A stretch of 64,000 nt of DNA from Acidobacteriota bacterium (GTDB taxonomy: Bacteria > Acidobacteriota > UBA6911): assembly GCA_963664705.1 (NCBI GenBank), contig OY761556.1, positions 5,760,001-5,824,000 of the forward strand. The letters run 5' to 3'. Both the position numbers and the translations under genes were made by a program. Positions 5,153-45,128 of this stretch are shown here, piece by piece. Every line of letters starts with the position of its first letter. The first letter of the stretch is position 1. Under the pieces are notes generated by a model that made no database searches, was not told the origin of the DNA, and saw only the letters and a list, made by a program, of their open reading frames with translations.

Positions 5153-5382
5153 CTAAGTCCAATAAAGATACTCAAAGTCCCCTCTACGCATAATTACCAG
5201 ATTCTCCGCCCGCCTGTCCGCCCTTAGACGCATAGCTAATATCGGGATCTTCCCCGGAACTGCATTCCGCTGAGCTTGAGCAAGCCACTGCTTCAGGGTC
5301 TTGGGGTAGTTGGCTTCAGACCTTTGCTTGCACTCGACACTGCCACCGATAGACCGAACCTCCTGTAAAGAACTGTGAGTGC

Positions 5383-5477
5383 CTAATGGTTAGTACTACT
5401 AATACTTGTCTACCGGAGTTTTCACGATACTCAATGCTTGACAGATTCCAAATGCCTGATATATTTAGCCCTTCTAA
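5383..5477 (+). promoter_or_regulatory. marR promoter with TTAG-N5-CTAA operator boxes
   Basis: TTGACA 5438-5443, TG-n-TATATT 5457-5465; palindromes TTAGtactaCTAA 5390-5402 and TTAGcccttCTAA 5465-5477. Confidence 0.6.
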
Positions 5478-5496
5478 CTATTGTGGAGTTCTCCCA

Positions 5497-5994
5497 ATGT
5501 CATCTTCAGCTCGTGCAATTGCAAGCCAGTTCTGCGATCTCATGCCCGTGATCGAACGTACGGTTTCATCCGAGCTGCGGCGCGGCAGCCAATATGTAAC
5601 GCCGTCTCACCTTCAGTTGTTGACGGCACTGGTTCAAGGGCCCTCCTCTCTGAGCGGACTTTCTGAGGTCATGGCAGTAAGTCTGCCAACAATGTCTAAT
5701 TCGGTGACCACGTTTGTTGAGCGTGGCTGGGTCAAGCGCACACAGTCTGCGGATGACCGCCGCTATATCAAAGTTGAATTAACGGATAAGGGCTTGAAGG
5801 CGCTGGTAGATATTCGTAAGCGAGTCGAACTGCTCTTCACTACCCAGTTCGAACATCTGCCGCCAGCAAAACGAGACGAACTCAAGGTCGCGTTTAAGAT
5901 ACTCCAGGAAACTTTTCAGCCCAAGGTTGGCGAAGCTAACAATGGAAATATCATAAAAAAGAGAGGTTCCCAAAAGCGACCCGGTCTGCGCTAA
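5497..5994 (+). CDS. MarR-family transcriptional regulator
   Basis: SLSGLSEVMAVSLPTMSNSVTTFVERGWVKRTQSADDRRYIKVELTDKG winged helix; GGAG RBS before ATG 5497. Confidence 0.9.
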   Translation: MSSSARAIASQFCDLMPVIERTVSSELRRGSQYVTPSHLQLLTALVQGPSSLSGLSEVMAVSLPTMSNSVTTFVERGWVKRTQSADDRRYIKVELTDKGLKALVDIRKRVELLFTTQFEHLPPAKRDELKVAFKILQETFQPKVGEANNGNIIKKRGSQKRPGLR

Positions 5995-6207
5995 AGTTTA
6001 CCGGCCTGTCTCACCACGTAGAGAGCCTCAGCTGATCAGCAAAACGGTTCCCGCCCATTCGGAGTTCTTGCATAAGATGTCTCAAGGGACATTCTTCTCC
6101 CAGGTGCAACTCATCATTAAATCTTTCGCGCTCGCTGGAGCGCGTCTTGGCTTCATGCTGAATACGATGGATCTTGAGCAGAGGATTCACACAGAGGATT
6201 CATACGG

Positions 6208-6265
6208 TTGACACATTTAACATATTTTTGTTACAGTTGGCATACCTAATACTTAGCAGATATAA
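6208..6265 (+). promoter_or_regulatory. Promoter of the glycyl radical enzyme gene with tandem MarR-type boxes
   Basis: TTGACA 6208-6213, TG-t-TACAGT 6229-6237; TTGGcatacCTAA 6237-6249 and TTAGcagatATAA 6253-6265. Confidence 0.5.
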
Positions 6266-6475
6266 GTGTGTGCGAGATGCCTGTCGGCATTTTGTTCAGA
6301 AAGGAAAGTGCAGGCGTTCTGGCACTTCTTATGGTCTTTTCAAAACAAGTGCCCATTGAATCCTCAAACGTGGTAATTTGGGAAACAGCATGCCTCTTTT
6401 GTGGGCGATATGAATAATTCGCACAACTATGTGCATACTCGAAAAAGACAATCCGCAAGAAAATGAGGTTTTGTC

Positions 6476-8881
6476 ATGTTTGAACTAAAGCCAATCTCGC
6501 CGCGAGTGCAGAAGCTTCGAAACATTTATCGAGACACCATTCCAACTCTGGACGCAGAACGGGTCAAGATACTCACCGAATGTCTCCCCACAATTCGGAA
6601 TGAAGTGCCGATTATTGGACGTGCTAAAGCGCTCTACGAAATACTGTCCAAAATGACCATAAGGGTTGAACCCGGTGAGCTGCTCATCGGCAACATGGCA
6701 AAAACTTTTCGTGGTTGCTGCCTTTGGCCGGAATATGGCGGATTGGGTTGGCTTATAGAAGAGCTGGATAGTGGGGTATTTGACAAAAAGGGAACCAGAG
6801 ACGGGAAGATGTACCTGGAGGAGGAAGACAGGGAATATGTGCATTCCGTTCAGGATTTCTGGAGAGAGAATTGCCTTGCGACAAAGCTGTCTTCGGTACT
6901 ACCCCAGGAACTGGTCACCCTTGGAAATGCCGGTGTGGGTCTCGATGCTTTTTCAAACGGTGCCATTCCCAGCGGACATTTCAATGCAAATTACCGAAAA
7001 GCCATTGAAAAGGGCTTTGGAGCTATAAAGCGGGAAGCGGTTGAAAAACTCGATGGAATGCGTGGAAAAATTGGCGGTCAGGATGCTGAACAATATTTCT
7101 TTTATAAAGCGATAGTAATCAGCTGCGATTCCGCCATTCTTTATGCAAAGCGCTATGCAGAAAAGTGCCGTGCCTTAGCAGAAGGCATCATGGGCGCGTC
7201 GCGGCGAGCGGAGCTGCTCAAGATGACGGATTCTCTGGATTGGATCATGGAGAATCCCGCTCGAACATACCATGAAGCATTACAGGTGTGCCTGCTGTAT
7301 CAATACATATTATTAATCGAGGGCAACTTTCTAGGCATAACAATAGGCCGGCTTGATCAGCATGTGGGGGATTACTTACGGGCCGACCTTCAGGCAAACC
7401 GCATCAGCACGGATTATGCCCAGGAGCTGATGGACTGCTTTTTTATTAAAACGGCTGATCTTTTTTTCAGCGGCCCGTTAATGATTTCCCGTATTGCCGG
7501 CGCCTATTCCAATAACCTCAGAATAACAATCGGAGGGCGAAAACCTGACGGTAGCGATGCAACGAATGAAGCGACGTTTCTATGCCTGCAATCAGCGGCT
7601 CGTCTGAAGCTTCATGACCCAAACCTCTCATTGGGATTCCACAAGGATTCACCCAATGAGCTCCTGGAGGCAGGGATTGAAACATCCAAGATTGTGTATG
7701 GAATCCCCTGCATTGAAAACACGGATTTGATCATTGACATGCTCCACAAACGAGGACTCGCCATTGAGGATGCCCGCAATTACTGTGTTGTGGGCTGCAT
7801 CGAGTTGTCGGGATCAGGCTGTGAATGGTCCAATGTGAGTTCTCCCTTTTCCAAAGGGTTTCTGAATATCGTTAATGTTCTGATGCAGGCCATCAATAAC
7901 GGGATCAATCCCCAGAATGGGCAACGCGGGGGATTGCAGACCGGCTATCTGTATGCAATGGACAGTTTTGAACAGGTGCAACAAGCCTTTAAAACCCAAC
8001 TGGAATATTTCATGGATTGGCAGTTTTCCCTAAACAACCTAATGGAACATGTCGGGTTTAGGATGATGCCCGTTCCCATCGCTTCGGCCACAATGGATGG
8101 TTGCATGCAAAATGGACGGGATATGTTGCTCGGGGGAGCAAAATACAATTCAACAGGCGTTGCCATCCTTGGAATCGGCACCATTGTTGACTCCCTTGCT
8201 GCTATCAAATACATGATTTATGACAAAAAGCTGTGCACCGCAAGGGAACTCTACGACGCGGTGATGGCAAACTGGGAAGGTCATGAACATCTTCGTTCCC
8301 GCATAATCAATGAAGCTCCCCATTACGGAAACGGAGACGAGTATGCAGACGAACTTGCGACCTGGATGGCTGATCTATACACACACCGCGTAGATTCCTA
8401 TAAAGGTCCCAGAGGCGGGTACCGAGCTGGTATTTATTCTGCAGGAGCCCACCTGTTATATGGCTATCAGACATGGGCAACTCCGGACGGCCGCCGCAAC
8501 GGGCAGCCCATTTCGGATTCTGCGTCGCCTTCACAGGGAGTCGTTAGAAACGGGCCAACGGGCGTTGCGAGGTCGATATTGGCTCTGCATCCTTCTAATT
8601 TCAGCAATGGTCTGCAATTCAATATGAAATTCCACCCATCATCTTTCCAGAGTCAGGAAGGTACTGAAAAGATGAAACAGTTTATCTGGAGCTTTTTTCA
8701 GCAGGGTGGTATGCAGCTGCAATACAACATTGTTGATGCGGATACATTGAGACATGCCAAGGAAAATCCGGATGAGCATCGGGATTTAGTAGTCAGGGTC
8801 GCGGGTTTTTCAGCATATTTTGTTGAGCTGTACGAAGATCTGCAAAATGAAATCATAACCAGAAGTGAAGTGAGCCTATAG
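6476..8881 (+). CDS. Glycyl radical enzyme (PFL2/dehydratase-lyase-like), substrate unknown
   Basis: 801 aa; Cys loop VVGCIELSG (single Cys, GCxE type, not the CC of PFL); Gly-radical loop LVVRVAGFSAYF; ATPDGRRNG. Confidence 0.93.
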   Translation: MFELKPISPRVQKLRNIYRDTIPTLDAERVKILTECLPTIRNEVPIIGRAKALYEILSKMTIRVEPGELLIGNMAKTFRGCCLWPEYGGLGWLIEELDSGVFDKKGTRDGKMYLEEEDREYVHSVQDFWRENCLATKLSSVLPQELVTLGNAGVGLDAFSNGAIPSGHFNANYRKAIEKGFGAIKREAVEKLDGMRGKIGGQDAEQYFFYKAIVISCDSAILYAKRYAEKCRALAEGIMGASRRAELLKMTDSLDWIMENPARTYHEALQVCLLYQYILLIEGNFLGITIGRLDQHVGDYLRADLQANRISTDYAQELMDCFFIKTADLFFSGPLMISRIAGAYSNNLRITIGGRKPDGSDATNEATFLCLQSAARLKLHDPNLSLGFHKDSPNELLEAGIETSKIVYGIPCIENTDLIIDMLHKRGLAIEDARNYCVVGCIELSGSGCEWSNVSSPFSKGFLNIVNVLMQAINNGINPQNGQRGGLQTGYLYAMDSFEQVQQAFKTQLEYFMDWQFSLNNLMEHVGFRMMPVPIASATMDGCMQNGRDMLLGGAKYNSTGVAILGIGTIVDSLAAIKYMIYDKKLCTARELYDAVMANWEGHEHLRSRIINEAPHYGNGDEYADELATWMADLYTHRVDSYKGPRGGYRAGIYSAGAHLLYGYQTWATPDGRRNGQPISDSASPSQGVVRNGPTGVARSILALHPSNFSNGLQFNMKFHPSSFQSQEGTEKMKQFIWSFFQQGGMQLQYNIVDADTLRHAKENPDEHRDLVVRVAGFSAYFVELYEDLQNEIITRSEVSL

Positions 8882-9078
8882 TTGGACGCTTAACAAATAA
8901 ACTTCGAAAAAGGGAATGCGCGTTTTCGGCGCTGAACCTGCTGGCGAGACCTCCCAAAGTCGCTGCGGAGTTTTCGGCTGACGGTCAGGTTGGATGAACG
9001 CTGCCCAATCCGTTCCTTCCCATTATGGTGATATGAGAGCTTTTGTAATTACTCAGAAATACATCGAAAGAGGTGCCC

Positions 9079-9852
9079 ATGGCTGGAGAGAGGAGTACTC
9101 CAAAAGACAATAACGAGAAGAAGAAATTTTCACGACGTCATTTCGTGGTAGGCGGCGGCACGGCCATTGCCGGCGGAGCCATTGCAGTTCTGGCAACCGC
9201 AACTCCGGCTGCTGCGGCTACGGAAGACAAGGGAACCGTCGCGCTTTCAACCAAATATCTGGTTTATGATTCGAAACACTGTGCCGGCTGTTACGGCTGC
9301 ATGATCGCCTGCTCTATGTCCCATGATGGAGAAGTCAGTTTATCGCTGGCCCGACTTCAGATGCACCGGGCAGTTCTGAATGAATATCCTACGGACATTA
9401 CCATGCACGTGTGCAAGCAATGTCCCGATCCATCCTGCGTGAAATATTGCCCGACAGGCGCCTGTCACGTCAGCGCCGAAAACGGCGACATCCGAATGAT
9501 CGATGCCGAAAAATGCGTTGGCTGCCAGACTTGCATCAGAATGTGCCCGCAGACTCCTCATCGCACCGTTTGGAATCCCAAGACAAACAAATCGACGAAG
9601 TGCGATCTATGCACCAATACACCATATTTCAACAAGAAGGGTGGTGTTACGGGAACTCAGGCTTGCATCGAGGCCTGCCCCAAACAAGTTCTAAAAGTAG
9701 TAGACAAGCTTCCGTTGGAAACTGGTGGCTACGAAGTGAATCTGGCGCCCGCTCCCAAACCTAAGATGGGCGGCTTCGGTGCTCCTCGAGCCGGTGGCCC
9801 TGGAGCTAAATCTGCAACCCCACAACAGGTACCGACAGAGCCCAAACATTAG
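9079..9852 (+). CDS. Tat-signal 4Fe-4S dicluster protein (YdhY/DmsB-like)
   Basis: SRRHFV twin-arginine motif plus hydrophobic stretch; CAGCYGCMIAC, CKQCPDPSCVKYCP, CVGCQTCIRMCP, KCDLC...CIEACP. Confidence 0.9.
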   Translation: MAGERSTPKDNNEKKKFSRRHFVVGGGTAIAGGAIAVLATATPAAAATEDKGTVALSTKYLVYDSKHCAGCYGCMIACSMSHDGEVSLSLARLQMHRAVLNEYPTDITMHVCKQCPDPSCVKYCPTGACHVSAENGDIRMIDAEKCVGCQTCIRMCPQTPHRTVWNPKTNKSTKCDLCTNTPYFNKKGGVTGTQACIEACPKQVLKVVDKLPLETGGYEVNLAPAPKPKMGGFGAPRAGGPGAKSATPQQVPTEPKH

Positions 9853-9866
9853 AGGAGGAGGAGAGT

Positions 9867-11915
9867 ATGGCGACACCAGGATTCGGTGGAAAGATTTTAT
9901 TAGTCGATCTTACAACCAAAGAAATCAAAAGGCTGGAAACGGATCAATATGCAATGTACGGAGGTGGGCACGGCACCTCCACCGCCCTGTTCTGGGAATA
10001 CAGCGTAGTTCCGGGGAAATGGAACCTTGATGACGCATTCAATCCCCTGAATATGGTTTTTTTGATGACCGGCGCCGTATCGGGAACTGGAATTCCTTTT
10101 GCCTCCAGGACAAGCGTCTCGGGCATGTCTCCGCAGTGCTATCCAATCCAGTGGTGGTGTCACAGCAACTTTGGCGGCACATTTGCCATGATGCTTAAAT
10201 TAGCGGGCTGGGATGGCGTGGCAGTCATCGGAAGAGCAGAGTCTCCGGTATATATCAATATTGTTGATGACAAAGTCACGCTCGAAGACGCCAGAGATTT
10301 GTGGGGCATGACGACCTGGAAGTGCCAGGAGGAGATCTGGAAGAGATCCGGCGTGCGCTACGGAATGGACTGGCAGCTGTTGGATGGAGGCTATACGCTG
10401 CAACGGCCCGCAATTGTCACCATCGGAGCCGCCGGTGAGAACATGACGCGAGTTGCGTCGCTCGTACATGGCGGCGGGAGCGGCGCGGGGCAAGGCGGAT
10501 TTGGCGGTGTTTTTGGATCTAAGAACCTGAAAGCAGTGTCGGTCGTGGGCTCCGGCAGCATCAAAATAGCCAATCCCAAAGCGTTGGTCGATGCCAAGGA
10601 AAAATATCATAAGGGCGGTGGCGGTTTTAGCGTCAATCTTTTCGGCGGCGCGAATGATGTTGCCTCATGTTGCGCGGGATGCGGCATGGGTAGCAGAATG
10701 TGCCACAACCGAAACCGGTCTTTCAGCGCGGATTCCGACGATTGCGCGGAATCGACCTGGTTCACCATCTCCAAAGAACAGTCCAAGGGAGTAGAGCTCC
10801 CGAAAGATATCAATCAGAAAGGGACAGATATCATTCAGCAGTTCGGAATCAACGGAATGGAAACCTGTTTCCAGGGTCACACGTCATTTCCGACTTCTCA
10901 CAACAAGGACTTCCCTATCCAGCCGAGTATCCCTGCCTATTCAGCACTGGGCTGGTACATGATGAAGATGTATGAAATGAAAGTCATTGGTCCCGGCACC
11001 AAGTTCGATACCGCGCCTCTCCCAATGGATAAGTTCCCAAGTCAGGAATTCATGGAAATGTATGGACGCGCGATCGCAAACCGCGAAGGTTTTGGCAAGC
11101 TCCTGGGGGAAGGAACCGCCCGCCTTGTTGAAGCACTAGGTAGAAAGGAAGACTTTAGTACACTGGCCCGGCAAACGATGTGGGGATTTATGGATCACTG
11201 GTCCATGCCTAATGTCGAATGGGCTTACGGCAATCTGTTCGATTCCAGGGATATCAACAGCCATGATATTTCCTGGGGGCGGGGCGATGCGGAACAGGCG
11301 GTCAAAAGCTATGCGGCCGGAACTCTCAGGAACGAACCGCTTTGGTTCGATTACACCTGGCAGGGGGATCAGGCTTATAAAACCGGAGTCTATTCCAGAT
11401 ACAAAGCCGAATGGGTTGCCTGGCACATGCATTACTGGAATTATTACAAAGAATCGGTCGGCTTCTGCGACTGGGGTTATTGCAACCTTAGTGCCAACGG
11501 GCGCACTCCTACCGCCGAACCAACCTATCTCAATGCAATCACCGGAAGAAATCACTCTTTCAATGACGGTTTGGAAATCGGCCGGCGCGCCTGGAATGTA
11601 AAACGGGCGATTTTTGTAATGCAGGGCAGGCACAAGAAAATGGAGAATTTCACTCCATATTATTACATGCCCGGCGCCTCCTATTGCGGCTATTACACGG
11701 ATCAGCCCCTACTCAAAGGCGACAAATGGGAAATTCAAAGCTGCAGGGAACTATACTTCACAAGAGAAGGAGTCGATCAGTTCAAGACCCATTTCTATAA
11801 TGTCGAGGGCTGGGATCCGGATTCAGGCTATCCCAAACGCAAAACTCTCGAGGATCTCGACATCAAACAAGTCGCCGATTTCCTGCAGTCCAAAAACAAA
11901 CTCGGTAAGGCATAA
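9867..11915 (+). CDS. Aldehyde:ferredoxin oxidoreductase (AOR/WOR, YdhV-like), copy 1
   Basis: GFGGKILLVDLT, SNFGGTFAMMLKLAGWDG, GGVFGSKNLKAVSV, FYNVEGWDPDSGYPKRKTLEDL; AGGAGG RBS. Confidence 0.92.
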   Translation: MATPGFGGKILLVDLTTKEIKRLETDQYAMYGGGHGTSTALFWEYSVVPGKWNLDDAFNPLNMVFLMTGAVSGTGIPFASRTSVSGMSPQCYPIQWWCHSNFGGTFAMMLKLAGWDGVAVIGRAESPVYINIVDDKVTLEDARDLWGMTTWKCQEEIWKRSGVRYGMDWQLLDGGYTLQRPAIVTIGAAGENMTRVASLVHGGGSGAGQGGFGGVFGSKNLKAVSVVGSGSIKIANPKALVDAKEKYHKGGGGFSVNLFGGANDVASCCAGCGMGSRMCHNRNRSFSADSDDCAESTWFTISKEQSKGVELPKDINQKGTDIIQQFGINGMETCFQGHTSFPTSHNKDFPIQPSIPAYSALGWYMMKMYEMKVIGPGTKFDTAPLPMDKFPSQEFMEMYGRAIANREGFGKLLGEGTARLVEALGRKEDFSTLARQTMWGFMDHWSMPNVEWAYGNLFDSRDINSHDISWGRGDAEQAVKSYAAGTLRNEPLWFDYTWQGDQAYKTGVYSRYKAEWVAWHMHYWNYYKESVGFCDWGYCNLSANGRTPTAEPTYLNAITGRNHSFNDGLEIGRRAWNVKRAIFVMQGRHKKMENFTPYYYMPGASYCGYYTDQPLLKGDKWEIQSCRELYFTREGVDQFKTHFYNVEGWDPDSGYPKRKTLEDLDIKQVADFLQSKNKLGKA

Positions 11916-12148: not shown

Positions 12149-12724
12149 TTACTCCGCCCCGATTATCAAATCCTGCAGTTTCCGCTTAGGCACGTGATGT
12201 ATGGACTGCGCATCCCTGTAGTACTTGATGTCTCCGGAAGGGCCTATGTCCTCCAGCACCACTTTTTCCGCAGGCACGCCCAGAGCAATCACCAAAAGGA
12301 TGTCCATGGTTTCCGGGATTTTCAGTTCAGTGCGTAACCTGTCCCGCTGCACATTGCCTATGAAACATCCTCCCAGTCCCCTTTCGGCAGCACCCAGCAG
12401 AATACTCTGACCGGCTATGCCATGGTCGCAGAAGAAATTATCGGCGATGCTCTTGTCGCCCAGTATGATTATGTAGGCGGCAGGCCGCTCCCCCTCGCTG
12501 GGTCCGCCCCAATCTTTAAGGTATCCGGCCCAGCCCAGACAAGGGAAGATCGCACTGTTTTTCTCCGCCGCAGTAGACAGGAAGTATTTTAGTGACTGGC
12601 GGTTGGCCGCGGAGGCGGAAAGCCGGGCCAGGTTCACCAGATCTTTCAAGATTTCCAACGAAACCGGCACTTCTTGTTTGAACCTCCTGTAACTACGGTT
12701 TTTCGTAACAAGATCCAACAGCAT
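12149..12724 (-). CDS. Nitroreductase family protein
   Basis: NRSYRRF, ARLSASAANRQSLKY, DHGIAGQSILLGAAERGLGGCFIG, VPKRKL. Confidence 0.92.
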   Translation of the reverse strand: MLLDLVTKNRSYRRFKQEVPVSLEILKDLVNLARLSASAANRQSLKYFLSTAAEKNSAIFPCLGWAGYLKDWGGPSEGERPAAYIIILGDKSIADNFFCDHGIAGQSILLGAAERGLGGCFIGNVQRDRLRTELKIPETMDILLVIALGVPAEKVVLEDIGPSGDIKYYRDAQSIHHVPKRKLQDLIIGAE

Positions 12725-13111
12725 GTATTGCTCCTTAAGAAGGCTATATGTTTTTTAAGACCCTCCGCCGATTGTGAGTGGGAAGGGCTCATTTCAATAG
12801 GTATTTTGATACCAATGATGCTGGAACAACAGAACATAATCTCCAGAAGCGATCTGGAACATTTGGTCCCTCGGTTCCTCACGGACGTTCCAGGGTAAGA
12901 TAGCCTATTTTACAGCCTTCTGTTCGGCTCCCCGGCAACGGGTTCCATTATTCGGTGGTTGCGTGCGCCAAATAGCTGGCTCCTTCGCCGCGCATACAGT
13001 AAAATCCGCCATCGATGCCAGCCGGTTCGAACAGTCGGCAGATGCTAGTCTGCAGGAGACGACTGTTGTCATTGCCGGAGCTGTGTCGAAAGCTTGAGAT
13101 TGGAAAAAGTC

Positions 13112-14461
13112 ATGCTGCCTGGGAACCGGGAGTCCGCCGCGGCGAGCCGGGATGCAGGATCATCCCCGCTGTCGGGTAAAATGAAACATAACGCCTTCGA
13201 AGCCTTCCGATATCGCGATTACCGGTTGCTCTGGATAGGGAATCTTTGCCAGACCATTGCCATCTGGATTCAAATGACCACCATGAGTTGGCTTGCCTAT
13301 GATCTGACGGGCTCGGGCGGCACCCTCGGTTTGGTGAACGGGATTCGCATAATCCCCAATCTTTTCGTCACGCCGATCGCTGGGGTTACCGTAGACCGCT
13401 TCAATAGAAACAGAATCATTGCGGTCAGCCAATTCTCCCTATTTTTATTTACGTTTCTCATGGCCGTCGACATTTACCTCGGCCATCTTCATGTCTCCCA
13501 TTTGTTTGTCTTTGCTCTGATCTCCGGTATTGCCAATTCTTTCAACATGCCGGCACGGCAGACTTTCGTGTTCGACCTCGTCCCGGCGCATATCGTTCCG
13601 AACGCAATTGCTTTGGACAATATCGCGATGAGCTCGTCACGGACAATAGCTTCGCTTGGAGCAGGCGCGCTGATTGTTGCTTTTGGGCCCGGCAACAACT
13701 TCCTCATCCAGGCTTGTATGTATCTGGCAATTATGACTACTGTCTTATCGATAAGGACCAAGCGACGCCCGCAGGCCACGCATCGCCGTCACTTCTTTAA
13801 GGAAATGGCCGAGGGTTTCCGGTACGGGATCCGGAATCCGAATGCACGGTTGCTCATGCTCATGATGATTATCAACCCCATGCTTCTGGTCCCTCTGCAT
13901 ATGGCGCTGCTGCCCATTTTTGCAACCAAGGTGTTGGCCGGCAATGCCGGGACGCTGGGCTGGTTGATGGGTTCACTCGGAGCGGGAGGACTTATCGGCG
14001 GCATATTGACGGCATCGCTGGGCAGCGTCGACCGGCGTGGCCTCGTCCAAATAATTTCACTGCTCGTGCATAGCCTGGCTCATGCACTATTTTGCGTGGT
14101 GGCATATTGGACGCATCAGCTTTGGCTCGCGCTCCCCTTCCTCGTCCTGGCCGGCACCATGGAAAGCCTTCACCTCACAACGAATCAAACCGTACTTCAG
14201 CTCCTCGCCCCCGATCACCTCCGTGGACGGCTGACGAGCGTCTTGCAATTAGTTCTGTTGATCAATCCGATTGGAATTTTCGCTGCCGGGGCACTTGCGG
14301 ATCATTTCGGGGCACTCGCCGTGGGCATAGCGTTCAGCATCTCCGCTCTTTTCATGACAATAGGCATTTTCCTCTTCTCCTCGCGGATGCGGGATCTTCG
14401 CCTCAGCGAACTCAGCGAACTCGGCCGGCAAGGCCTCGACCTAGCTCAGCCAGGACGATGA
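13112..14461 (+). CDS. MFS transporter (EntS/DHA3-like)
   Basis: About 12 TM; FRYRDYRLLW, motif A GVTVDRFNRNR, PDHLRGR; start could be 13181. Confidence 0.9.
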   Translation: MLPGNRESAAASRDAGSSPLSGKMKHNAFEAFRYRDYRLLWIGNLCQTIAIWIQMTTMSWLAYDLTGSGGTLGLVNGIRIIPNLFVTPIAGVTVDRFNRNRIIAVSQFSLFLFTFLMAVDIYLGHLHVSHLFVFALISGIANSFNMPARQTFVFDLVPAHIVPNAIALDNIAMSSSRTIASLGAGALIVAFGPGNNFLIQACMYLAIMTTVLSIRTKRRPQATHRRHFFKEMAEGFRYGIRNPNARLLMLMMIINPMLLVPLHMALLPIFATKVLAGNAGTLGWLMGSLGAGGLIGGILTASLGSVDRRGLVQIISLLVHSLAHALFCVVAYWTHQLWLALPFLVLAGTMESLHLTTNQTVLQLLAPDHLRGRLTSVLQLVLLINPIGIFAAGALADHFGALAVGIAFSISALFMTIGIFLFSSRMRDLRLSELSELGRQGLDLAQPGR

Positions 14462-16618: not shown

Positions 16619-18640
16619 TCATATTCCCAGCTTGCCTCTGGCAGCCATGGTATCTGCCATCTTTTTCATGCCGAAATCTTCCAAGGTCTTTCTGGTCGGC
16701 CAACCGTGGACAGTATCCCAGCCCTCCAATTTGTAGAAGTGGGTCTTAAATTCCTCTACGCCACCCTTGTCCAGATATATATCCGGCAGGTTGTCCCAAT
16801 GCCATTTGCCATCTTCGTACACCGGGACTCCACCAAAAGCGGCCATCCCAGCGGCTCCGGGCCTGTACATGTACGGGAAGAACACTTCTTGCTCCCGGCT
16901 TAGGCCCGCCATAGTTCGAATTGCCCGCTCCAGGGTCCAGATCTTCCTGCCAGTTTCCATGGTATCCGCAAAAGAAATTTTGCTGCCGGTAACAGCCCGA
17001 TAATAGCGCATCTCCATGTCGGGAGTGACCGTGTTCAGTCGCGGCAGGAAAAATTCACAGAAAGCCATGGATTCGTTCCAGAAACTTGCATAATGCCTGG
17101 TCCAAGCCACCTCCTTGGCTTTATGCTCGGAATAGATGCCCGTTTTTCTGGCTTCGTCTCCTTTCCAGGCGTAGTTGAACATGAAGATATCATTATAAGG
17201 AATGACCCTTGCGGAAAGCCGTTCCAAAACCTTCTCAATGGGAGTGCCATCCCGGGAAGTCCCGACGGCCGAGCTGAACCCATGCCAACTGGGATCTCCT
17301 GCTCCGAGCAGGTAGTTATAAGCCCATTCAACGTACGGCATGGTCCAATGCCCTGTGGCTCCCCAGGCCGGGAACCGCAAGGCGCCGGACTCCATGTCCT
17401 GTTCCAGCCGCCCCCATTTCTTGGCCGCTTCGCAGACGCCTTCGGCTATGGCGTCGCCGATTCCTTCTCGCCGGGCTATGGCATCAAGGAACGCTTCGCG
17501 GAAGACCAATTCTCCCCATTGGTCCATGGGCAGCGGAGCCGATTCGATCTGCTTTCCCGGACCCAGCACGCCCTGCTCATAGAGGTAACGCAGATACCAG
17601 CCGATTCCTGTTTCCATCGGCACTTTTTTGTGGAAGAACTCCGGCGCATTGGGAACGTCCGACACGAACGCTCCTAAAAAATGAGCCGCCCAGGAACTGG
17701 CTCCGTATTTCATCAATGCTCCTGCAGCACGGTCTGCAGCCTCCGTTCCACGATCGCCCAGCCACAACTGACTGGTGCACATGGTTTCGCCGCCATATAA
17801 GGTGTTGCGTCGACGGTCGGCACGGAGGCAGGAATTACAGGAACCATCCCCGGGTACTGCGGCACCAAATTGTCCTGTCGTTATCGGAGTCTGCATATCG
17901 GCCAATCTGGCGTCCAGGACGCCCTTGGGATCCGCCATCTTCACATTGCCGGTCCCCGTCACGCTGATGGCCTTCAAATTCTTCGCCCCAAAGATCGCGC
18001 CGTAGCCGCTAACGAGGCTGCTGCAGCCGCTGCCGTGAATCAAGGCTGCCAAACTGGACTTGGTCTCTCCAATTGGGCCGATGCAAACGATCTGAGGTCT
18101 GGCCGTTGTATAGGCGTTCCCAATCTGCTGCCATTCATCACCGAAGCGAGTCCTTCCGGCAACCATGGATTCAATCCGGTTCTGAGTTGTCCAGGTATCC
18201 AAGCCCCAGAGCTCCTTCGCTTCCTCGATTTTGACTTGGTCGTTGATGATATTGATCCATACCGGCCTTTCCGCCCGGCCTTCCACTACCACGCCATCCC
18301 ACCCCGCCAACTTCAACATGGTGGCAAAACGGCCGCCAAAATTGCCGCGGTGGAATTCCCGAGTTGGAAAGGTTTCCGGACAGATGCCGCAGACACTGGT
18401 TCTGCCGGCTCCGGGAACGCCCGTAGCCGCCAATCGACCCGCCATGATAGGAAGGACATGGCGCGGATCGTAGGGATCCTTCAAATCCCATTCGCCCGGG
18501 GCGACCGCGAGATCCCAGAAGATGGCTGCGCCCATACCATAGCCGCCGCCGTATTCCTCGTATTTTGCGGTGTCGATTGTGCTGATTTCTTTTGTTGTCA
18601 GATTGACTCGTGCAATTTTACCTGTGAATCCATTGGCCAT
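16619..18640 (-). CDS. Aldehyde:ferredoxin oxidoreductase (AOR/WOR, YdhV-like), copy 2
   Basis: MANGFTGKIARVNLTT, GNFGGRFATMLKLAGWDG, GAIFGAKNLKAISV, FYKLEGWD..GWPTRKTLE. Confidence 0.92.
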   Translation of the reverse strand: MANGFTGKIARVNLTTKEISTIDTAKYEEYGGGYGMGAAIFWDLAVAPGEWDLKDPYDPRHVLPIMAGRLAATGVPGAGRTSVCGICPETFPTREFHRGNFGGRFATMLKLAGWDGVVVEGRAERPVWINIINDQVKIEEAKELWGLDTWTTQNRIESMVAGRTRFGDEWQQIGNAYTTARPQIVCIGPIGETKSSLAALIHGSGCSSLVSGYGAIFGAKNLKAISVTGTGNVKMADPKGVLDARLADMQTPITTGQFGAAVPGDGSCNSCLRADRRRNTLYGGETMCTSQLWLGDRGTEAADRAAGALMKYGASSWAAHFLGAFVSDVPNAPEFFHKKVPMETGIGWYLRYLYEQGVLGPGKQIESAPLPMDQWGELVFREAFLDAIARREGIGDAIAEGVCEAAKKWGRLEQDMESGALRFPAWGATGHWTMPYVEWAYNYLLGAGDPSWHGFSSAVGTSRDGTPIEKVLERLSARVIPYNDIFMFNYAWKGDEARKTGIYSEHKAKEVAWTRHYASFWNESMAFCEFFLPRLNTVTPDMEMRYYRAVTGSKISFADTMETGRKIWTLERAIRTMAGLSREQEVFFPYMYRPGAAGMAAFGGVPVYEDGKWHWDNLPDIYLDKGGVEEFKTHFYKLEGWDTVHGWPTRKTLEDFGMKKMADTMAARGKLGI

Positions 18641-18655
18641 ATCTATTCTCCTTCC

Positions 18656-19405
18656 TTAGGACTTTGACGCCGGTGGTTCTTTGGCGGTTGGGGTTCCCGG
18701 CTTACGAGACGGCGTCTTCGGCATCGGAGGAGCCAGATTGACGTCGTACCCGGATACATCCTCCTGCGGAGGAGCTTCATGGACAATTTTGAGCGCCTTG
18801 GCTGGACAGCACGTAACACATGCGGGTTCCCCATCGGGGCCCCCCTTTTTGCTCCAGAAAGGCGCGTCGATGCATAGGTCGCACTTGGAAGATTTGTTCT
18901 TGTAGGGATTCCAGACCGTCCGATGAGGCCGTTGAGGGCAGAACTGGATGCACCGCTTGCAGCCGATGCACTTGGCCTGATCGATGACCCGGACATTACC
19001 GTGTTCGGTATCAACATGAGCGGCGCCGGTCGGACAATTCTGGACGCAGAGCGGTGATATGCATTGACGGCAGGCTGCCATAACGACGTCGAGTGGGTAC
19101 TTGGTGAACGATGGAGCATCCCGGACAATCTGAATTCGGGACAGGGCAGGATTCGCTTCTCCTTGATGCGTCATGGAACATGCAAACATACAGCTTTGGC
19201 AACCCCAGCATAGACGACTGTCATAAACGATGTAGCCGGTGGATGCAGGATACGTTGCTTTCGTATCAGCAGGGAATGCCGTCGTTGCTGAAACTCCCGG
19301 AACGCCAACTGCAAGCGCTCCTCCAGCCAGAGCTGCGCCACTACCGACTAGAAACTCACGCCTGTGCACTCTCTTTTTGCTGTCGGCCTTTTCTGATTCA
19401 GCCAT
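18656..19405 (-). CDS. Tat-signal 4Fe-4S dicluster protein (YdhY-like)
   Basis: HRREFL twin-arginine signal; four Cys clusters; paralog of 9079-9852. Confidence 0.9.
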   Translation of the reverse strand: MAESEKADSKKRVHRREFLVGSGAALAGGALAVGVPGVSATTAFPADTKATYPASTGYIVYDSRLCWGCQSCMFACSMTHQGEANPALSRIQIVRDAPSFTKYPLDVVMAACRQCISPLCVQNCPTGAAHVDTEHGNVRVIDQAKCIGCKRCIQFCPQRPHRTVWNPYKNKSSKCDLCIDAPFWSKKGGPDGEPACVTCCPAKALKIVHEAPPQEDVSGYDVNLAPPMPKTPSRKPGTPTAKEPPASKS

Positions 19406-40594: not shown

Positions 40595-40685
40595 AAAAAC
40601 GTCACTAATTTCGCGGATGGTAACGAATGGCTTCCAGACCAGCCCCGCAACATTTGTGTCAATTCGTGGAATTAGTGGCGTTTTT
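40595..40685. repeat. REP-like palindrome overlapping the LysR stop codon
   Basis: AAAAACGTCACTAATT...CGAATG / CATTTG...AATTAGTGGCGTTTTT. Confidence 0.55.
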
Positions 40686-41610
40686 CGCAGCCGGGTTTTC
40701 GCAGTGGTTGGAGTTTGTTCGCCGTTTCCTTCAACAAATCCCTTAGCCAAATATGCCCTGGGTCCTGGTCCTGATAACGATGCCACTGAAGGCACTGGGT
40801 AACTTTTGGAATGTCAAAAGGAGGGGGAATTAGCCTCAGAGGCAGGTGTTGTGCGCAAAGCCGGGCTATTCGGCTCACAACCGTTGTTATTCTGTTGGTT
40901 CCCACAACCAGCCGGCACGCAGATTCGAAATCCTGTGTAATGACTTCTATTTTTCTTGTCTCTCCGTAATGTGTTGCATACCACTCTTCAAAAATTGCCT
41001 GAGCCGTCCCGAAATGAACCGCGATGTGGCCCATGTTGACGAACTGGCTTGAGGAAATTCTGTTTCCAACTATCGGGTTGTCGCGCCACACCACACAGGT
41101 GTGGGTATCTTCGAAGAGCGGTTCCTTCGGATGCGCCCTCAAGGCATGAATGGATGGACGGACAAAGAAATCGATGCCGCCCTTCTCCAGTTTCTGTTCG
41201 ATGTGCTCATCAAGCCGCACAAGTTCAAATCTGATTCCGGGCGCCTTCCGCGCAGCTTCCTGCATGGCCTGAGGCATCAAAACAGCGGTCACATAGTCGG
41301 ATACGGCAAGGCAGAATTTCCGGTCGGAAGCAGCCGGATCGAATGCCGCTTTCGAAGCGACGGTGTGCTGGATCTGCATCAGGCAACTTCTTACCGGCTG
41401 CACAAGGCTTTCCGCCAGCGGCGTCAGGACCATTCTGCGCCCCGCGGGAGCCAACAATTCATTTCCGAAGTACTTTCGAAGGCGCGAGAGGATTATGCTG
41501 GTCGCCGGCTGACTTAAATGGAGCCGCTCGCCGGCGCGCGTGACACTCTTTTCCGTCAACAAGGCATCCAGTGCTACAAGCAACCCGATATCGAAATTGT
41601 CCAGATCCAT
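40672..41610 (-). CDS. LysR-family regulator, NodD-like
   Basis: DIGLLVALDALLTEKSVTRAGERLHLSQPA...RLRKYF..ELL...GRRMVLTPLAESL, FDPAASDRKF...SDY, QWHRYQDQDPGHIWLR. Confidence 0.9.
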   Translation of the reverse strand: MDLDNFDIGLLVALDALLTEKSVTRAGERLHLSQPATSIILSRLRKYFGNELLAPAGRRMVLTPLAESLVQPVRSCLMQIQHTVASKAAFDPAASDRKFCLAVSDYVTAVLMPQAMQEAARKAPGIRFELVRLDEHIEQKLEKGGIDFFVRPSIHALRAHPKEPLFEDTHTCVVWRDNPIVGNRISSSQFVNMGHIAVHFGTAQAIFEEWYATHYGETRKIEVITQDFESACRLVVGTNRITTVVSRIARLCAQHLPLRLIPPPFDIPKVTQCLQWHRYQDQDPGHIWLRDLLKETANKLQPLRKPGCEKRH

Positions 41611-41622
41611 AAGGCCTCAGGT

Positions 41623-41637
41623 ATTTAAGGTTTTAAT
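41623..41637. promoter_or_regulatory. LysR box (T-N11-A; ATT-N9-AAT)
   Basis: ATTTAAGGTTTTAAT in the AT-rich divergent region 12 bp from the lysR start. Confidence 0.5.
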
Positions 41638-41765
41638 TACAATACATATGAAATATCTATTCCACAAATGGAAAAAATTCATGTACATTCGCATTGTGGG
41701 CAATTCCAGTTTCAGCCAGGAAGAATGGAATACTGCCCGTCAATCAGCAAATCGGGAGTTATCCA

Positions 41766-42596
41766 ATGGCATCTTCAGAATTACCTCCGCTCAGTCCAGA
41801 AGAACAGCGAAGATCCTACGCCAAATACTATAAAAGGCCGGTTTCGCCGGATCCCGCGCATCTGGCTTTGATGGACATGCCCTGCGACCCCTCAAAAGCC
41901 GTATATCCGGAGCAGATGAATGACCTTCTCAATCCCGGCGATCTGTCGGTGGAGATTGGGTGGTGCAATCTGCCCAACGGCGCGGGCTTTATCGCCAACA
42001 GGAACTTCTACAAAAATGTGACGGCAGAGATGATCGACTGGTGGTTCGCCTGGCATCCGCTTGACGGCTTGCGGTACCGCATTTGGTATCCGCCGCAACA
42101 CGCGGGAATTGATCTGAAGCCCGAAGGCCGGGCGCGAATTCTGGATCCAGGCATCCCCGTTTCTGAGAAGAATTGGGGGGTAACCCATTTTGTTACCGAA
42201 GACTGCGATTGTGGAATGGAAAACATCGAAATCACATTTCTGTCGCCTCGAGATTTCGGATTTGATATGACGCGGTGGCAGGAACCGTACGTTTCCACTT
42301 TCGCAGGCGGCTTCGGCTGGTCCACACCGGCTGGGCATACGGAGCATCCCATAAAGGCACCTTCTTTAATGTGTCATATTTTTCGAAATATCCCGGGCGG
42401 TCTCGAACACCGAACGCGCTTCTGGATCGGTTATCGGATGTCCAGCGGCAAGCCTGAACTGGTCCTGCCTCCGGGCATCGCAGTTCCGGCAATAGCGGTT
42501 CAGGGGTTGGCAAGGCACAATGTACGGGAATTCAGTAATCTTGGCGTGCTGCTGCCGGAGATCCACGCGGAATACGGCGGGCAGCTGATCGGGTAA
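41766..42596 (+). CDS. PhlG/phloretin hydrolase family C-C hydrolase
   Basis: VTAEMIDWWFAWH...RYRIWYPPQH, THFVTED, EHRTRFWIG, ARHNVREFSNL; the H/E/H/E Zn-ligand pattern is present. Confidence 0.88.
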   Translation: MASSELPPLSPEEQRRSYAKYYKRPVSPDPAHLALMDMPCDPSKAVYPEQMNDLLNPGDLSVEIGWCNLPNGAGFIANRNFYKNVTAEMIDWWFAWHPLDGLRYRIWYPPQHAGIDLKPEGRARILDPGIPVSEKNWGVTHFVTEDCDCGMENIEITFLSPRDFGFDMTRWQEPYVSTFAGGFGWSTPAGHTEHPIKAPSLMCHIFRNIPGGLEHRTRFWIGYRMSSGKPELVLPPGIAVPAIAVQGLARHNVREFSNLGVLLPEIHAEYGGQLIG

Positions 42597-42630
42597 GCAT
42601 AAATACGTTCGAATCAGTTTTGGAGGGGGC

Positions 42631-42852
42631 ATGAGTGCCACTATTGAGATCAATCTGGATGAATGCACTGGCTGCAAAAATTGTGTTGAGGCTTGCTTTG
42701 TAGATGTGATGCGATGGGACGATGACGAAGAAAAGCCGGTTGTCGCATATGAACCGGATTGCGTCTGGTGTTTTACTTGCGAAATCAACTGCCCCGCTCA
42801 ATGCATCAACGTCGTACCTCAAATGCCGGGACAACTCGTAAATCCGTACTGA
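42631..42852 (+). CDS. 2x[4Fe-4S] ferredoxin (AprB-like small subunit)
   Basis: CTGCKNCVEAC and CVWCFTCEINCP. Confidence 0.9.
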   Translation: MSATIEINLDECTGCKNCVEACFVDVMRWDDDEEKPVVAYEPDCVWCFTCEINCPAQCINVVPQMPGQLVNPY

Positions 42853-42881
42853 GCGTCGTCCGCAAACAAAGGGAGTCATAC

Positions 42882-45128
42882 ATGGTAGAGAAAGCCAAGA
42901 ACTCAACAGCATACGATACAGACGTTCTTATCATCGGCGGCGGCTTCGGAGGCCTTTCGGCAGCGATCCGGATTAAAGAACTGTCCCCGGAATCCAGTGT
43001 GCTGCTCGTCGATAAACAGACAATTGGCTGGGGAGGAAAAGCGAACAAAGGGGCCGGCGTTTTATGGGTCCTTGCCCCCGGAGATGACATCGATGCCTTT
43101 GCGGATTTCCACGTAAAGAACATAGGGATGTACCTGAACGACCAGGATCTGCTGTATGCCATGGCCCGGGAGTCATACGGAGCGGCGCAGAAGCTCGCGG
43201 ATTGGGGCGTTAAGGTGATGAAGACTCCGAATGGAGATCTTGATGTCAGCCGGCTTCCTTTCGGATGGTCCCTGGCGGCCGCCGACTTGGATATGATGCA
43301 GCCGCTTAGGGCAAAGGCGGTGAAACTCGGAGTCAAGCTGTTGGACAAGACTCATGTGGTCGATTTGCTGAAACAGGAAGGACGCGTAACCGGCGCAGTC
43401 GGCTTCAATCTCCTGGATGGGGGATTCGCGGTCTTCAACGCAAAGGCCACGATATTGGCCAACGGAGATTGCGATTTCGGCGTTATGCGAATGTGGGCTA
43501 ATGCCACCGGAGACGGCATTGCAGCCGCCTTTAATGCCGGAGCGGAGATGCGGAATGCCGAATTCGGCAACTTTTACGATGTCACCAACAAAGGCACAGG
43601 CATTCCGATCGTTTTCGGTTTTAACTCTCTCTGGAACGCGCAGGGGGAGAATATAAGCGCCAAATACATCCATGGACCGCAGCCGGATATCCCGATTTCC
43701 ATCATTCTCGGTATGGAGAAAGAGGTCATGGAGGGAAGAGGACCTATCTATTTTGACCCGGCTGAGTTTGCGAAAAGCATGGGTGGCGGCGGCGGGGGAA
43801 TATTTCAATGGGACCGGCCTCATACCAAAGCGCTTTTTGCCTGTGATGCAAAGAAGGCACAGCAGTATGGCCCGCCACCGGCAGAGAAAATAGAAGTTTC
43901 TCTTGGATTCACAGGCGAGTTTTCCGCAATCAGAGTAGACAGCGAAATGCAAACAACCCTCCCGGGTCTGTGGGCAATCGGAGATACCAGCTATGCGGGA
44001 TCTGCATGGGCCGGCGCTGCAGAGGCGCCGCCGGGCAGATTGAGAGGCTCCGGCCTGATGAACGCTTTGATATCCGCTCTGATGTCTGCCCGGTCCGTGG
44101 TTGAGCACGCAAAAGAGGCCTCCCCTACCATTGCGGATGACAACCAGGTCGCCGCTCTAAGGGAGAAAATTTTTGCGCCTCTGAACCGTGACGGCGGATA
44201 CGCGGCTTCGGAAGCCATACGAAGCATTCAGGAAGTAGTTGTACCGGTGAAATACAGCATGCGCAGGAACAAGGAAAGACTGGAAGAAGCCTTGTCCAAG
44301 GTGGCAGCGGTCAAGGAGAGGCTGCCCGAATTATCCGCCAAGGATCCGCACGGTCTCGTCCGCTGTCATGAGGCTTCCTGCATTGCACTGTGTGCCGAAA
44401 TCGGCTTTAAGTCAGCGCTGGCGCGCACTGAAAGCAGGGGTTGGCATTACAGAGAGGATTATCCCCAGCAGGACGACAAAAACTGGCTCAAGTGGGTCAT
44501 TGTAAAAAAAGTGCAGGACAGCATGGTCGTTACCACCGAGCCCATTCCCAGCGAGCTCTATAAACTAAAGCCAGGACAGGTTACCGCTGTGCCTGACGCG
44601 GTTGTCGAACACGATGAGCTTATCGGGGTGACCCCCGAAATGATCGATTGGTGGTGGGTCAATATGGAAAAGGGATACCCATTGTGGGAACCAACCGATC
44701 ACAAATCCTTTGTTTGGGAAGTGCCGCCGCCGGTTGGAGGATATCTGGGAGCAATCCAGATCGCAGAGGAAAAAATGGGGCCAATGCCGCCGATGAAAAT
44801 TCGCATCCGGTGGGACGACCCCGCCACCTGCTCCATCCCTTGTATCTACGAGCATGCGATCGTTGCAGCTGGGGTTAGTCCCGATGGGAAGGTGGGCGCT
44901 ATGATTCTCCATGAGTGGGAAAAGAGTCCCCGGGGAACCAGGATGCGCTCCACGATGCGTTTCCCGGGTCCCGTTCCACCCGGCTTCGCCGAGATCTGGA
45001 AAGCTCACGACAGGGCGGAAGTATCGACCTTCCCCGGATTCCTGCCCGATCTCTACAGACTATGGCAGTCTGTGAAGGATCCGGCAATCAACAGGCAATG
45101 CTCATTGAAGGTGAAGAAAACTTCGTAG
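42882..45128 (+). CDS. AprA/SdhA-like FAD oxidoreductase fused to a C-terminal PhlG-like domain
   Basis: DVLIIGGGFGG, AKATILANG, TGDG, PGLWAIGD, ARTESRGWHYREDYP; then GVTPEMIDWWW...LWEPTDH...IAEE...AHDRAE from about 44600. Confidence 0.88.
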   Translation: MVEKAKNSTAYDTDVLIIGGGFGGLSAAIRIKELSPESSVLLVDKQTIGWGGKANKGAGVLWVLAPGDDIDAFADFHVKNIGMYLNDQDLLYAMARESYGAAQKLADWGVKVMKTPNGDLDVSRLPFGWSLAAADLDMMQPLRAKAVKLGVKLLDKTHVVDLLKQEGRVTGAVGFNLLDGGFAVFNAKATILANGDCDFGVMRMWANATGDGIAAAFNAGAEMRNAEFGNFYDVTNKGTGIPIVFGFNSLWNAQGENISAKYIHGPQPDIPISIILGMEKEVMEGRGPIYFDPAEFAKSMGGGGGGIFQWDRPHTKALFACDAKKAQQYGPPPAEKIEVSLGFTGEFSAIRVDSEMQTTLPGLWAIGDTSYAGSAWAGAAEAPPGRLRGSGLMNALISALMSARSVVEHAKEASPTIADDNQVAALREKIFAPLNRDGGYAASEAIRSIQEVVVPVKYSMRRNKERLEEALSKVAAVKERLPELSAKDPHGLVRCHEASCIALCAEIGFKSALARTESRGWHYREDYPQQDDKNWLKWVIVKKVQDSMVVTTEPIPSELYKLKPGQVTAVPDAVVEHDELIGVTPEMIDWWWVNMEKGYPLWEPTDHKSFVWEVPPPVGGYLGAIQIAEEKMGPMPPMKIRIRWDDPATCSIPCIYEHAIVAAGVSPDGKVGAMILHEWEKSPRGTRMRSTMRFPGPVPPGFAEIWKAHDRAEVSTFPGFLPDLYRLWQSVKDPAINRQCSLKVKKTS

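Follow-up and report, generated by a model that had tools for sequence, protein, structure and literature searches.

We analyzed a window of 64 kb (contig OY761556.1 of an Acidobacteriota bacterium, positions 5,760,001 to 5,824,000) taken from the single contig, C1, of a 6.9-Mb genome (G000). In this window, a gene encoding a glycyl radical enzyme (GRE) follows a marR gene and precedes a gene pair encoding an iron–sulfur (Fe-S) small subunit bearing a signal for twin-arginine translocation (Tat) and an AOR/WOR-family large subunit (Table 1). The original prediction for this locus combined the GRE and the AOR gene into a two-step pathway, in which the aldehyde product of the GRE would be oxidized by the adjoining AOR. 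The marR gene, an intact GRE gene, the Tat Fe-S gene, and the AOR gene are all present as predicted, and all of them lie on the plus strand. A public contig of sequencing run X2, which possibly derives from the source sample, covers positions 5308–9618 with 0 differences and rules out an assembly join at the GRE/Fe-S junction; run X5 contained near-identical DNA in short pieces only.

Table 1. Features of the marR–GRE locus and related genes (window positions)
Feature	Position	Strand	Description
marR promoter region	5390–5477	+	sigma-70-like site 5438–5465, boxes 5390–5402 and 5465–5477
marR	5497–5994	+	165 aa, PF12802/PF01047
GRE promoter region	6208–6265	+	sigma-70-like site 6208–6237, one-mismatch boxes 6237–6249 and 6253–6265
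GRE gene	6476–8881	+	801 aa, PF02901 and PF01228, GCIE and RVAGFS
GRE/Fe-S intergenic gap	8882–9078	+	197 bp
Tat-signal multi-[4Fe-4S] small subunit, WorS/YdhY-like	9079–9852	+	257 aa, 17 Cys
Divergent AOR/WOR-family large subunit	9867–11915	+	682 aa, PF02730 and PF01314, without signal of its own
Nitroreductase-family gene	12149–12724	-	convergent with AOR
MFS transporter	13094–14461	+	
Further AOR gene, same clade as AOR 9867–11915	16619–18640	-	
Further AOR gene, same clade as AOR 9867–11915	47847–49865	+	

The GRE and its subfamily

The GRE displays the features of its superfamily, that is to say, Gly777 (positions 8804–8806) in the RVAGFS motif, the Cys441 loop (Cys441 at 7796–7798), and the two Pfam domains; His168 (6977–6979) and Glu443 complete the catalytic positions. 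Its AlphaFold model (pLDDT 94) matches glycerol dehydratase (GD; 1r8w) with a TM-score of 0.95 at 31% identity, and GD and 1,2-propanediol dehydratase (PD) are the best structural matches. The identity to solved or annotated GREs is at most about 33%, and the protein scores below every NCBIfam cut-off (e.g., PFL2-3, 548/678 bits). Comparison with the individual classes revealed that (i) the GRE is not a CutC (TIGR04394, 445 versus 1050 bits) and has His168 where CutC has Asp; (ii) it is not a HypD (NF043068, 496 versus 1100 bits) and lies outside the HypD branch in the tree; (iii) it is not an HpfG or HpsG (NF048009 and NF048011, 486 and 455 versus 1000 bits); (iv) it is not an HPAD or IAD decarboxylase (NF033715, 314 versus 1150 bits; NF033718, 350 versus 1100 bits), these being the lowest family scores; and (v) it is not a GD or PD, since the pocket residues of these enzymes (His281, Ser282, Tyr/Phe339, and Asp447) are replaced and it falls outside the GD/PD clade.

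The homolog set consisted of 84 full-length proteins that are at least 50% identical to the GRE among the best 120 listed; 2 of the 84 belong to a sister group, and the subfamily comprises about 82 proteins. In a tree of 42 rows picked from an 87-row alignment, the subfamily had a support value (SH-aLRT) of 100, as did a wider clade including two paralogs from the same genome, C1:1833211 (45% identical) and C1:6260435 (41%). None of the GD, PD, YbiW, HypD, and CutC references lay inside this wider clade. The GRE is therefore uncharacterized, as originally predicted, and its sequence places it in an eliminase-type subfamily that matches no characterized class. Searches of the ESM Atlas returned generic GRE clusters only. 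Literature searches by title and abstract, whose coverage leaves out most subscription papers, gave no sign of this subfamily, and the passages of PMC3543383 and PMC4207490 that were consulted contain nothing on it.

His168, Cys441, and Glu443 are invariant in all 84 homologs, and each of Asn347, Arg349, Asn453, Ser455, and Ser459 is conserved in 82. The CxE motif of 1,2-eliminases and isomerases (PMC13450708, sections 5.6–5.7) is present as Cys441/Glu443, and the general acid of C–O eliminases is present as His168, which aligns to GD His164. The alignment with GD further shows that Cys433, Glu435, and Tyr640 (Tyr654 in the GRE) are kept, whereas His281, Ser282, Tyr339, and Asp447 are changed to Leu286, Gly287, Asn347, and Ser459, respectively, and Arg349, conserved in the subfamily, is gained. 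The loss of these four residues together with the gain of Arg349 suggests a larger substrate, probably anionic or aryl-bearing.

The same residues bear on the reaction type. The GRE could be active in trans without being a C–O eliminase, either as a ring-opening isomerase (YbiW/PflD/HplG-like) or as a decarboxylase that binds a carboxylate through Arg349. Isomerases keep the CxE motif too (PMC13450708, section 5.7), YbiW keeps the His of the His168 column, and conservation of Arg349 hints at an anionic group. However, the decarboxylase models score lowest of all families and GD and PD are the top structural matches, and we consider this alternative quite improbable. By analogy with the GD mechanism (PMC13450708, section 5.6) and judging from the alignment, the GRE would perform a C–O elimination.

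Activation in trans and origin of the marR–GRE cassette

The original prediction reported no activase for the GRE. This holds for the window, where no CxxxCxxC motif was found in any stop-to-stop frame of at least 100 aa and no radical-SAM family match among the 41 open reading frames (ORFs) scanned, but the absence is local only, because the genome as a whole contains 4 GRE activases above the TIGR02494 cut-off alongside 8 GREs. Absence of an own activase is typical of the subfamily: of the 14 subfamily loci flanked on both sides by at least 1.2 kb, only 1 has one (13/14 have none), compared with 63 of 90 loci of more distant relatives, counts that include close kin and are not independent.

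This one cis activase (locus L030) is 56% identical to the genomic activase ACT2 (G000:C1:1832224–1833180) and 36–41% identical to the other three. ACT2 lies 3.9 Mb from the window GRE in linear terms and adjoins the 45% paralog C1:1833211, forming a GRE–activase pair that recurs across the genus. An ACT2-like activase (at least 57% identical) occurs in 10 of the 14 genomes bearing a GRE ortholog; in 4 Desulfatiglandales-type genomes, it adjoins an 80% ortholog of C1:1833211. The Gly loops of the window GRE and this paralog, RVAGFSA and RIAGFSA, are one residue apart, and cross-activation has been published between GREs with like Gly loops, the precedents being PFL-AE on TdcE, HPAD-AE, and IBSS-AE (PMC13450708, section 2.5). 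Given the kinship of the cis activase, the co-occurrence in 10/14 genomes, and the similarity of the Gly loops, ACT2 likely activates the window GRE in trans. The genome-wide search supplied a likely remote partner.

The genome and the surveyed loci contained several other GRE arrangements. Four other GREs of G000 do not have the CxE motif (C1:4683002–4685446, 2693193–2695682, 1562570–1564990, and 2613922–2616324); it is replaced by Cys-x-Tyr, Cys-x-Gln, and, twice, Cys-x-Asp, and these represent further types. GRE C1:2693193 has no adjoining activase and is 57% identical to C1:4683002, which has one. The loci L278 and L279 (G054, a 3.3-Mb genome with 7 activase matches) show the tandem orders activase–GRE–activase–GRE and activase–activase–GRE. 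Six Actinomycetota-type loci (L029, L034, L087, L124, L128, and L129) have the GRE ortholog alone in or beside a nusG–rplJ–rpoB cluster, where neither pathway genes nor activases accompany it; rplJ was identified by Pfam in L034, and the other genes of the cluster are presumably as named, to go by their ORF starts.

Among 137 genomes of the class, a single one, G000 itself, has a GRE ortholog; the best GRE matches in congeners reach 41–47% only, and long matches to the marR–GRE DNA are absent from 29 congeners. The nearest relatives with genome context are found in Desulfatiglandales-type metagenome-assembled genomes (MAGs; 69–81%), one Oscillospiraceae genome (73%), and Actinomycetota (60–69%). 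The GC content of the GRE gene is 48%, versus 53% for the genome. The marR–GRE cassette likely arrived by lateral transfer. Window positions 5157–5337 match C1:5746418–5746598 at 83%. The matching stretch lies about 19 kb upstream in an apparent mobile element that bears an integrase, and the window fragment is possibly a scar left at the border of the marR–GRE insertion.

The MarR protein lacks close paralogs in the genome (E<1e-15), and a PDB search with it gave weak generic matches and no ligand clue. Sigma-70-like promoters are predicted upstream of both marR and the GRE gene. Two exact TTAG-N5-CTAA boxes are located at the marR promoter, and two boxes with one mismatch overlap or follow the GRE sigma-70-like site. 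Nowhere else in the genome do four such boxes fall within 1 kb, and shuffling reached four in 2 of 3000 trials; no box of this type was found before the Fe-S gene or in the gap at 8882–9078. We regard the boxes, a motif read post hoc from the same DNA, as predicted MarR operators, and MarR likely controls itself and the GRE.

A recently arrived cassette could also be a silent passenger, that is to say, intact and with a GRE that no resident activase activates. The restriction of the ortholog to a single genome of the class, the usual specificity of activases (PMC13450708, section 2.5), the identity of only 45% to the nearest activase-paired paralog, and the fragment of an integrase-bearing element just upstream are all compatible with this. 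Nevertheless, the activase-less state is the norm of the subfamily over three phyla, with invariant catalytic residues, and the predicted promoter and operator-like boxes are intact, which makes a silent GRE very unlikely.

The adjoining Fe-S/AOR pair

The Fe-S gene encodes, as identified by eye, an SRRHFV twin-arginine motif, a hydrophobic stretch, and an AxA site, and the genome has two TatC genes. The caveat of the original prediction, that this Tat signal conflicts with a cytoplasmic GRE and that the adjacency may be non-functional, was right. The large subunit has the AFOR_N and AFOR_C domains and the fold of the AOR family (Z 27.8–31.7 and rmsd 3.2–3.9 over 539–559 residues against four WOR structures). 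Domains 2–3 could not be aligned at the sequence level with PfAOR at Thr243, Glu313, Tyr427, and His448, and the model has pLDDT <50 at residues 250–297 and 437–446. The best NCBIfam match is the YdhV model, at 181 bits versus a cut-off of 868 bits. According to PMC13328260, a WorS with a Tat signal, which the Fe-S gene encodes, is the defining mark of the periplasmic Class V WORs, a class with no known activity; no gene for the further subunit of that class follows the window AOR.

The genome has 24 AOR N-domains above the Pfam cut-off. The clade of the window AOR has 15 in-genome members, 8 of which are preceded by an Fe-S gene encoding a twin-arginine motif. Copies of the clade are also found in the window at 16619–19405 (-) and 47847–49865 (+); it occurs in 29 of 29 congeners (1–8 matches each, E<=1e-150) and in 0 of 21 other family genomes at that cut-off. 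This expanded AOR/WOR clade may merit its own study. One twin Fe-S/AOR pair, C1:446225–449032 (AOR 446225–448267), is 86–88% identical to the window pair in protein and 81% in DNA, and no GRE is found in its vicinity. The DNA similarity to the twin starts at 9045, 34 bp before the Fe-S ATG. The twin has co-oriented downstream genes, and the same partners recur downstream of the congeneric AOR loci, whereas the next gene after the window AOR is the convergent nitroreductase. The window pair is likely an independent duplicated module.

Synteny elsewhere, set beforehand as a test of the predicted pathway, was not found. An AOR gene is present in 0 of 26 subfamily GRE loci, 15 of which have at least 3 kb of downstream sequence, and in 0 of 146 more distant GRE loci. 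Conversely, orthologs of the window AOR occur in 29 of 29 congeners, none of which has the GRE ortholog; no GRE lies near any of the 29 congeneric AOR loci or in 14 longer stretches, with the window locus as positive control. The AOR clade is absent from 8 of the 14 ortholog-bearing genomes (best E about 1e-31 or none), and in G056 and G057 the GRE lies 0.6 and 1.9 Mb from the closest AOR. Because of the lack of synteny at the 26 loci, the AOR orthologs in congeners without the GRE, and the twin pair without a GRE, the GRE–AOR neighborhood is probably due to chance and the two-step pathway probably not real; the proposal that the adjoining AOR oxidizes an aldehyde from the GRE is not supported by these comparisons.

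The locus could instead be a young lineage-specific operon, in which the Fe-S/AOR duplicate was kept after the arrival of the GRE and the aldehyde diffuses to the periplasm for oxidation there. The 197-bp gap has no predicted plus-strand terminator and separates co-oriented genes, and such an adjacency has a probability of 0.1–0.9% under uniform placement, although AOR genes cluster (three in 64 kb). The window pair arose by recent duplication and no longer has the downstream partners of its twin, and all 6 Desulfatiglandales-type GRE genomes (the same six that hold the GRE among 61 genomes in the family of G056) also hold a close AOR (66–71%). By contrast, the lack of synteny and the clade distribution described above weigh against this reading, Tat export would place the AOR and the GRE in different compartments, and the ortholog neighbors suggest a ketone (see below). 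In addition, CsWOR41L, of the Tat-WorS type, oxidized 0 of 46 aldehydes as a partially purified protein without its small subunit (PMC13328260, sections 13–14). We therefore regard a young operon as unlikely.

In the original prediction, the run is followed by a nitroreductase and an MFS gene. The MFS gene is on the plus strand; the nitroreductase gene is on the minus strand and outside the run. Neither adjoins any GRE or AOR ortholog, and both were rejected as pathway members. Elsewhere in the window, positions 40672–45128 encode a LysR, a PhlG/DAPG-hydrolase-domain protein, and a 789-aa flavoprotein (FAD_binding_2 and Succ_DH_flav_C), which has a weak DAPG-hydrolase match at its C-terminus, an unusual fusion.

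Proposed chemistry and comparison with known systems

The neighbors of the GRE orthologs provide clues to the product. Upstream of the ortholog, the Desulfobacterota loci L021, L022, and L028 encode a biotin carboxylase pair together with an HMG-CoA-synthase-like/OB fusion and a thiolase; L021 and L022 also have a 3-oxoacid CoA-transferase gene near the ortholog. A short-chain dehydrogenase/reductase (SDR) in L021, L022, L025, and L027 has its best PDB matches among the lignin Cα-dehydrogenases LigO, LigL, and LigD. L025 contains corrinoid methyltransferase genes and an acetoacetate-decarboxylase-like gene. Among the Actinomycetota loci, L030 combines an esterase with a pyrogallol-transhydroxylase-like pair, and others have no partner. 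G000 itself encodes homologs of the carboxylase (58%) and the CoA-transferase (83%) within 25 kb of ACT2 and, elsewhere, a strongly LigO-like SDR with LigO, LigL, and LigD among its best matches (E 2e-77). Carboxylase, CoA-transferase, and thiolase together constitute a textbook ketone route. Their presence near the orthologs favors a ketone over an aldehyde as the putative GRE product. The original prediction expected an aldehyde from a CxE-type GRE; such enzymes do yield aldehydes, but also ketones and imines (PMC13450708, sections 5.6–5.7).

A UGSC-type gene pair, whose small subunit weakly matches PF24696, also lies beside GRE orthologs (L021, L022, L026, L027, and L037) and beside AOR paralogs; G000 has 33 large-subunit matches, and examples of the pair are C1:4207187–4208980, C1:1801660–1803384, and L021:10803–12527. 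L037, labeled Anaerovoracaceae, is almost identical in gene layout and coordinates to the Desulfatiglandales locus L026 and is possibly mis-binned.

Taken together, the locus is best explained, with a probability of roughly two in three, as a laterally acquired, MarR-controlled, single-gene GRE cassette that has a remote activase and sits beside an independent Fe-S/AOR module. ACT2 would install the radical on Gly777, after which Cys441 would abstract a hydrogen from the carbinol carbon, Glu443 would deprotonate the hydroxyl group, and His168 would protonate the neighboring O-linked leaving group. The outcome would be a C–O 1,2-elimination as in GD, acting on a larger diol or hydroxy-ether that is probably anionic or aryl-bearing. 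The product, more likely a ketone than an aldehyde for the periplasmic AOR, would pass to a carboxylase, a 3-oxoacid CoA-transferase, and a thiolase encoded elsewhere.

Several points weigh against this explanation, besides the short gap, the low odds of adjacency, and the shared hosts of GRE and AOR given above: (i) the pocket was mapped by alignment only; (ii) sharing of one activase by GREs only 45% identical exceeds the published cases of cross-activation; (iii) 4 of the 14 ortholog-bearing genomes, whose completeness is not given, show no intact ACT2-like gene, one of them having frameshifted pieces (L089); (iv) the synteny counts exclude the contigs of the closest GRE homologs (81–84%, P0002–P0008), and in G055 one GRE copy has a 39% AOR paralog at a distance of 23 kb; and (v) many subfamily members have no pathway neighbors, so that the ketone rests on a few related Desulfobacterota loci, and an aldehyde dehydrogenase is encoded downstream in two loci of the sister group (45% and 49%).

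A more specific possibility, to which we give little credence, is that members of the subfamily cleave lignin-type compounds anaerobically, as aryl-ether or aryl-diol lyases. Hydrogen abstraction at a benzylic carbinol and loss of the neighboring aryloxy or hydroxyl group would yield an aryl ketone in a reaction independent of glutathione and oxygen, and one activase would serve a family of lyases (three paralogs here). The hosts would be anaerobes rich in LigD-type dehydrogenases, O-demethylase-like and pyrogallol-transhydroxylase-like genes, and expanded WORs. Literature searches combining glycyl radical with phenoxyethanol ether, beta-O-4, or lignin ether cleavage returned nothing relevant within a coverage that leaves out most subscription papers.

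Each new GRE class has brought new anaerobic chemistry, and this subfamily combines a sharply conserved, unusual pocket with a distribution over MAGs of Desulfobacterota, Bacillota, and Actinomycetota and an activase that is seldom alongside. The locus also makes it possible to test directly whether GREs only 41–45% identical share one activase; the breadth of activase sharing was called little studied by a 2026 review (PMC13450708, section 2.5). Guesses at the substrate should start from the neighbors of the GRE orthologs, not from the window AOR.

Among known systems, GD of C. butyricum (1R8W/1R9D) and PD (5I2A, 9RCO) share with the window GRE the fold (TM 0.93–0.95), the CxE loop, His168, and Tyr654. 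The GRE differs from them in its identity of about 31%, the four changed pocket residues, the gained Arg349, its separate clade, and the absence of neighboring genes for an activase, an alcohol dehydrogenase, or a microcompartment. CutC, HypD, HpfG/HpsG, and YbiW/PflD are also of the CxE type, with the same barrel and 25–31% identity; the GRE misses their curated cut-offs by >500 bits, and the CutC, HypD, and YbiW references lie outside its clade. The PFL-AE/TdcE, HPAD-AE, and IBSS-AE systems likewise have one activase for several GREs with like Gly loops. These pairs are close homologs, whereas ACT2 would serve GREs 41–45% identical. The Class V WORs (E. coli YdhVY and CsWOR41LS) share the order of an Fe-S small subunit with a Tat signal and then a WOR large subunit; the window AOR differs in its score on the YdhV model (181/868 bits), the lack of a third subunit, and its 15 paralogs in the genome. 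Finally, the Sphingobium Cα-dehydrogenases LigO, LigL, and LigD (4YA6, 4YAE, and 4Y98) are 3 of the 4 best PDB matches of the ortholog-side SDR (E 9e-51 to 4e-34), a likeness that concerns the neighbors of the orthologs, not the window, and that does not fix the substrates of the SDR.

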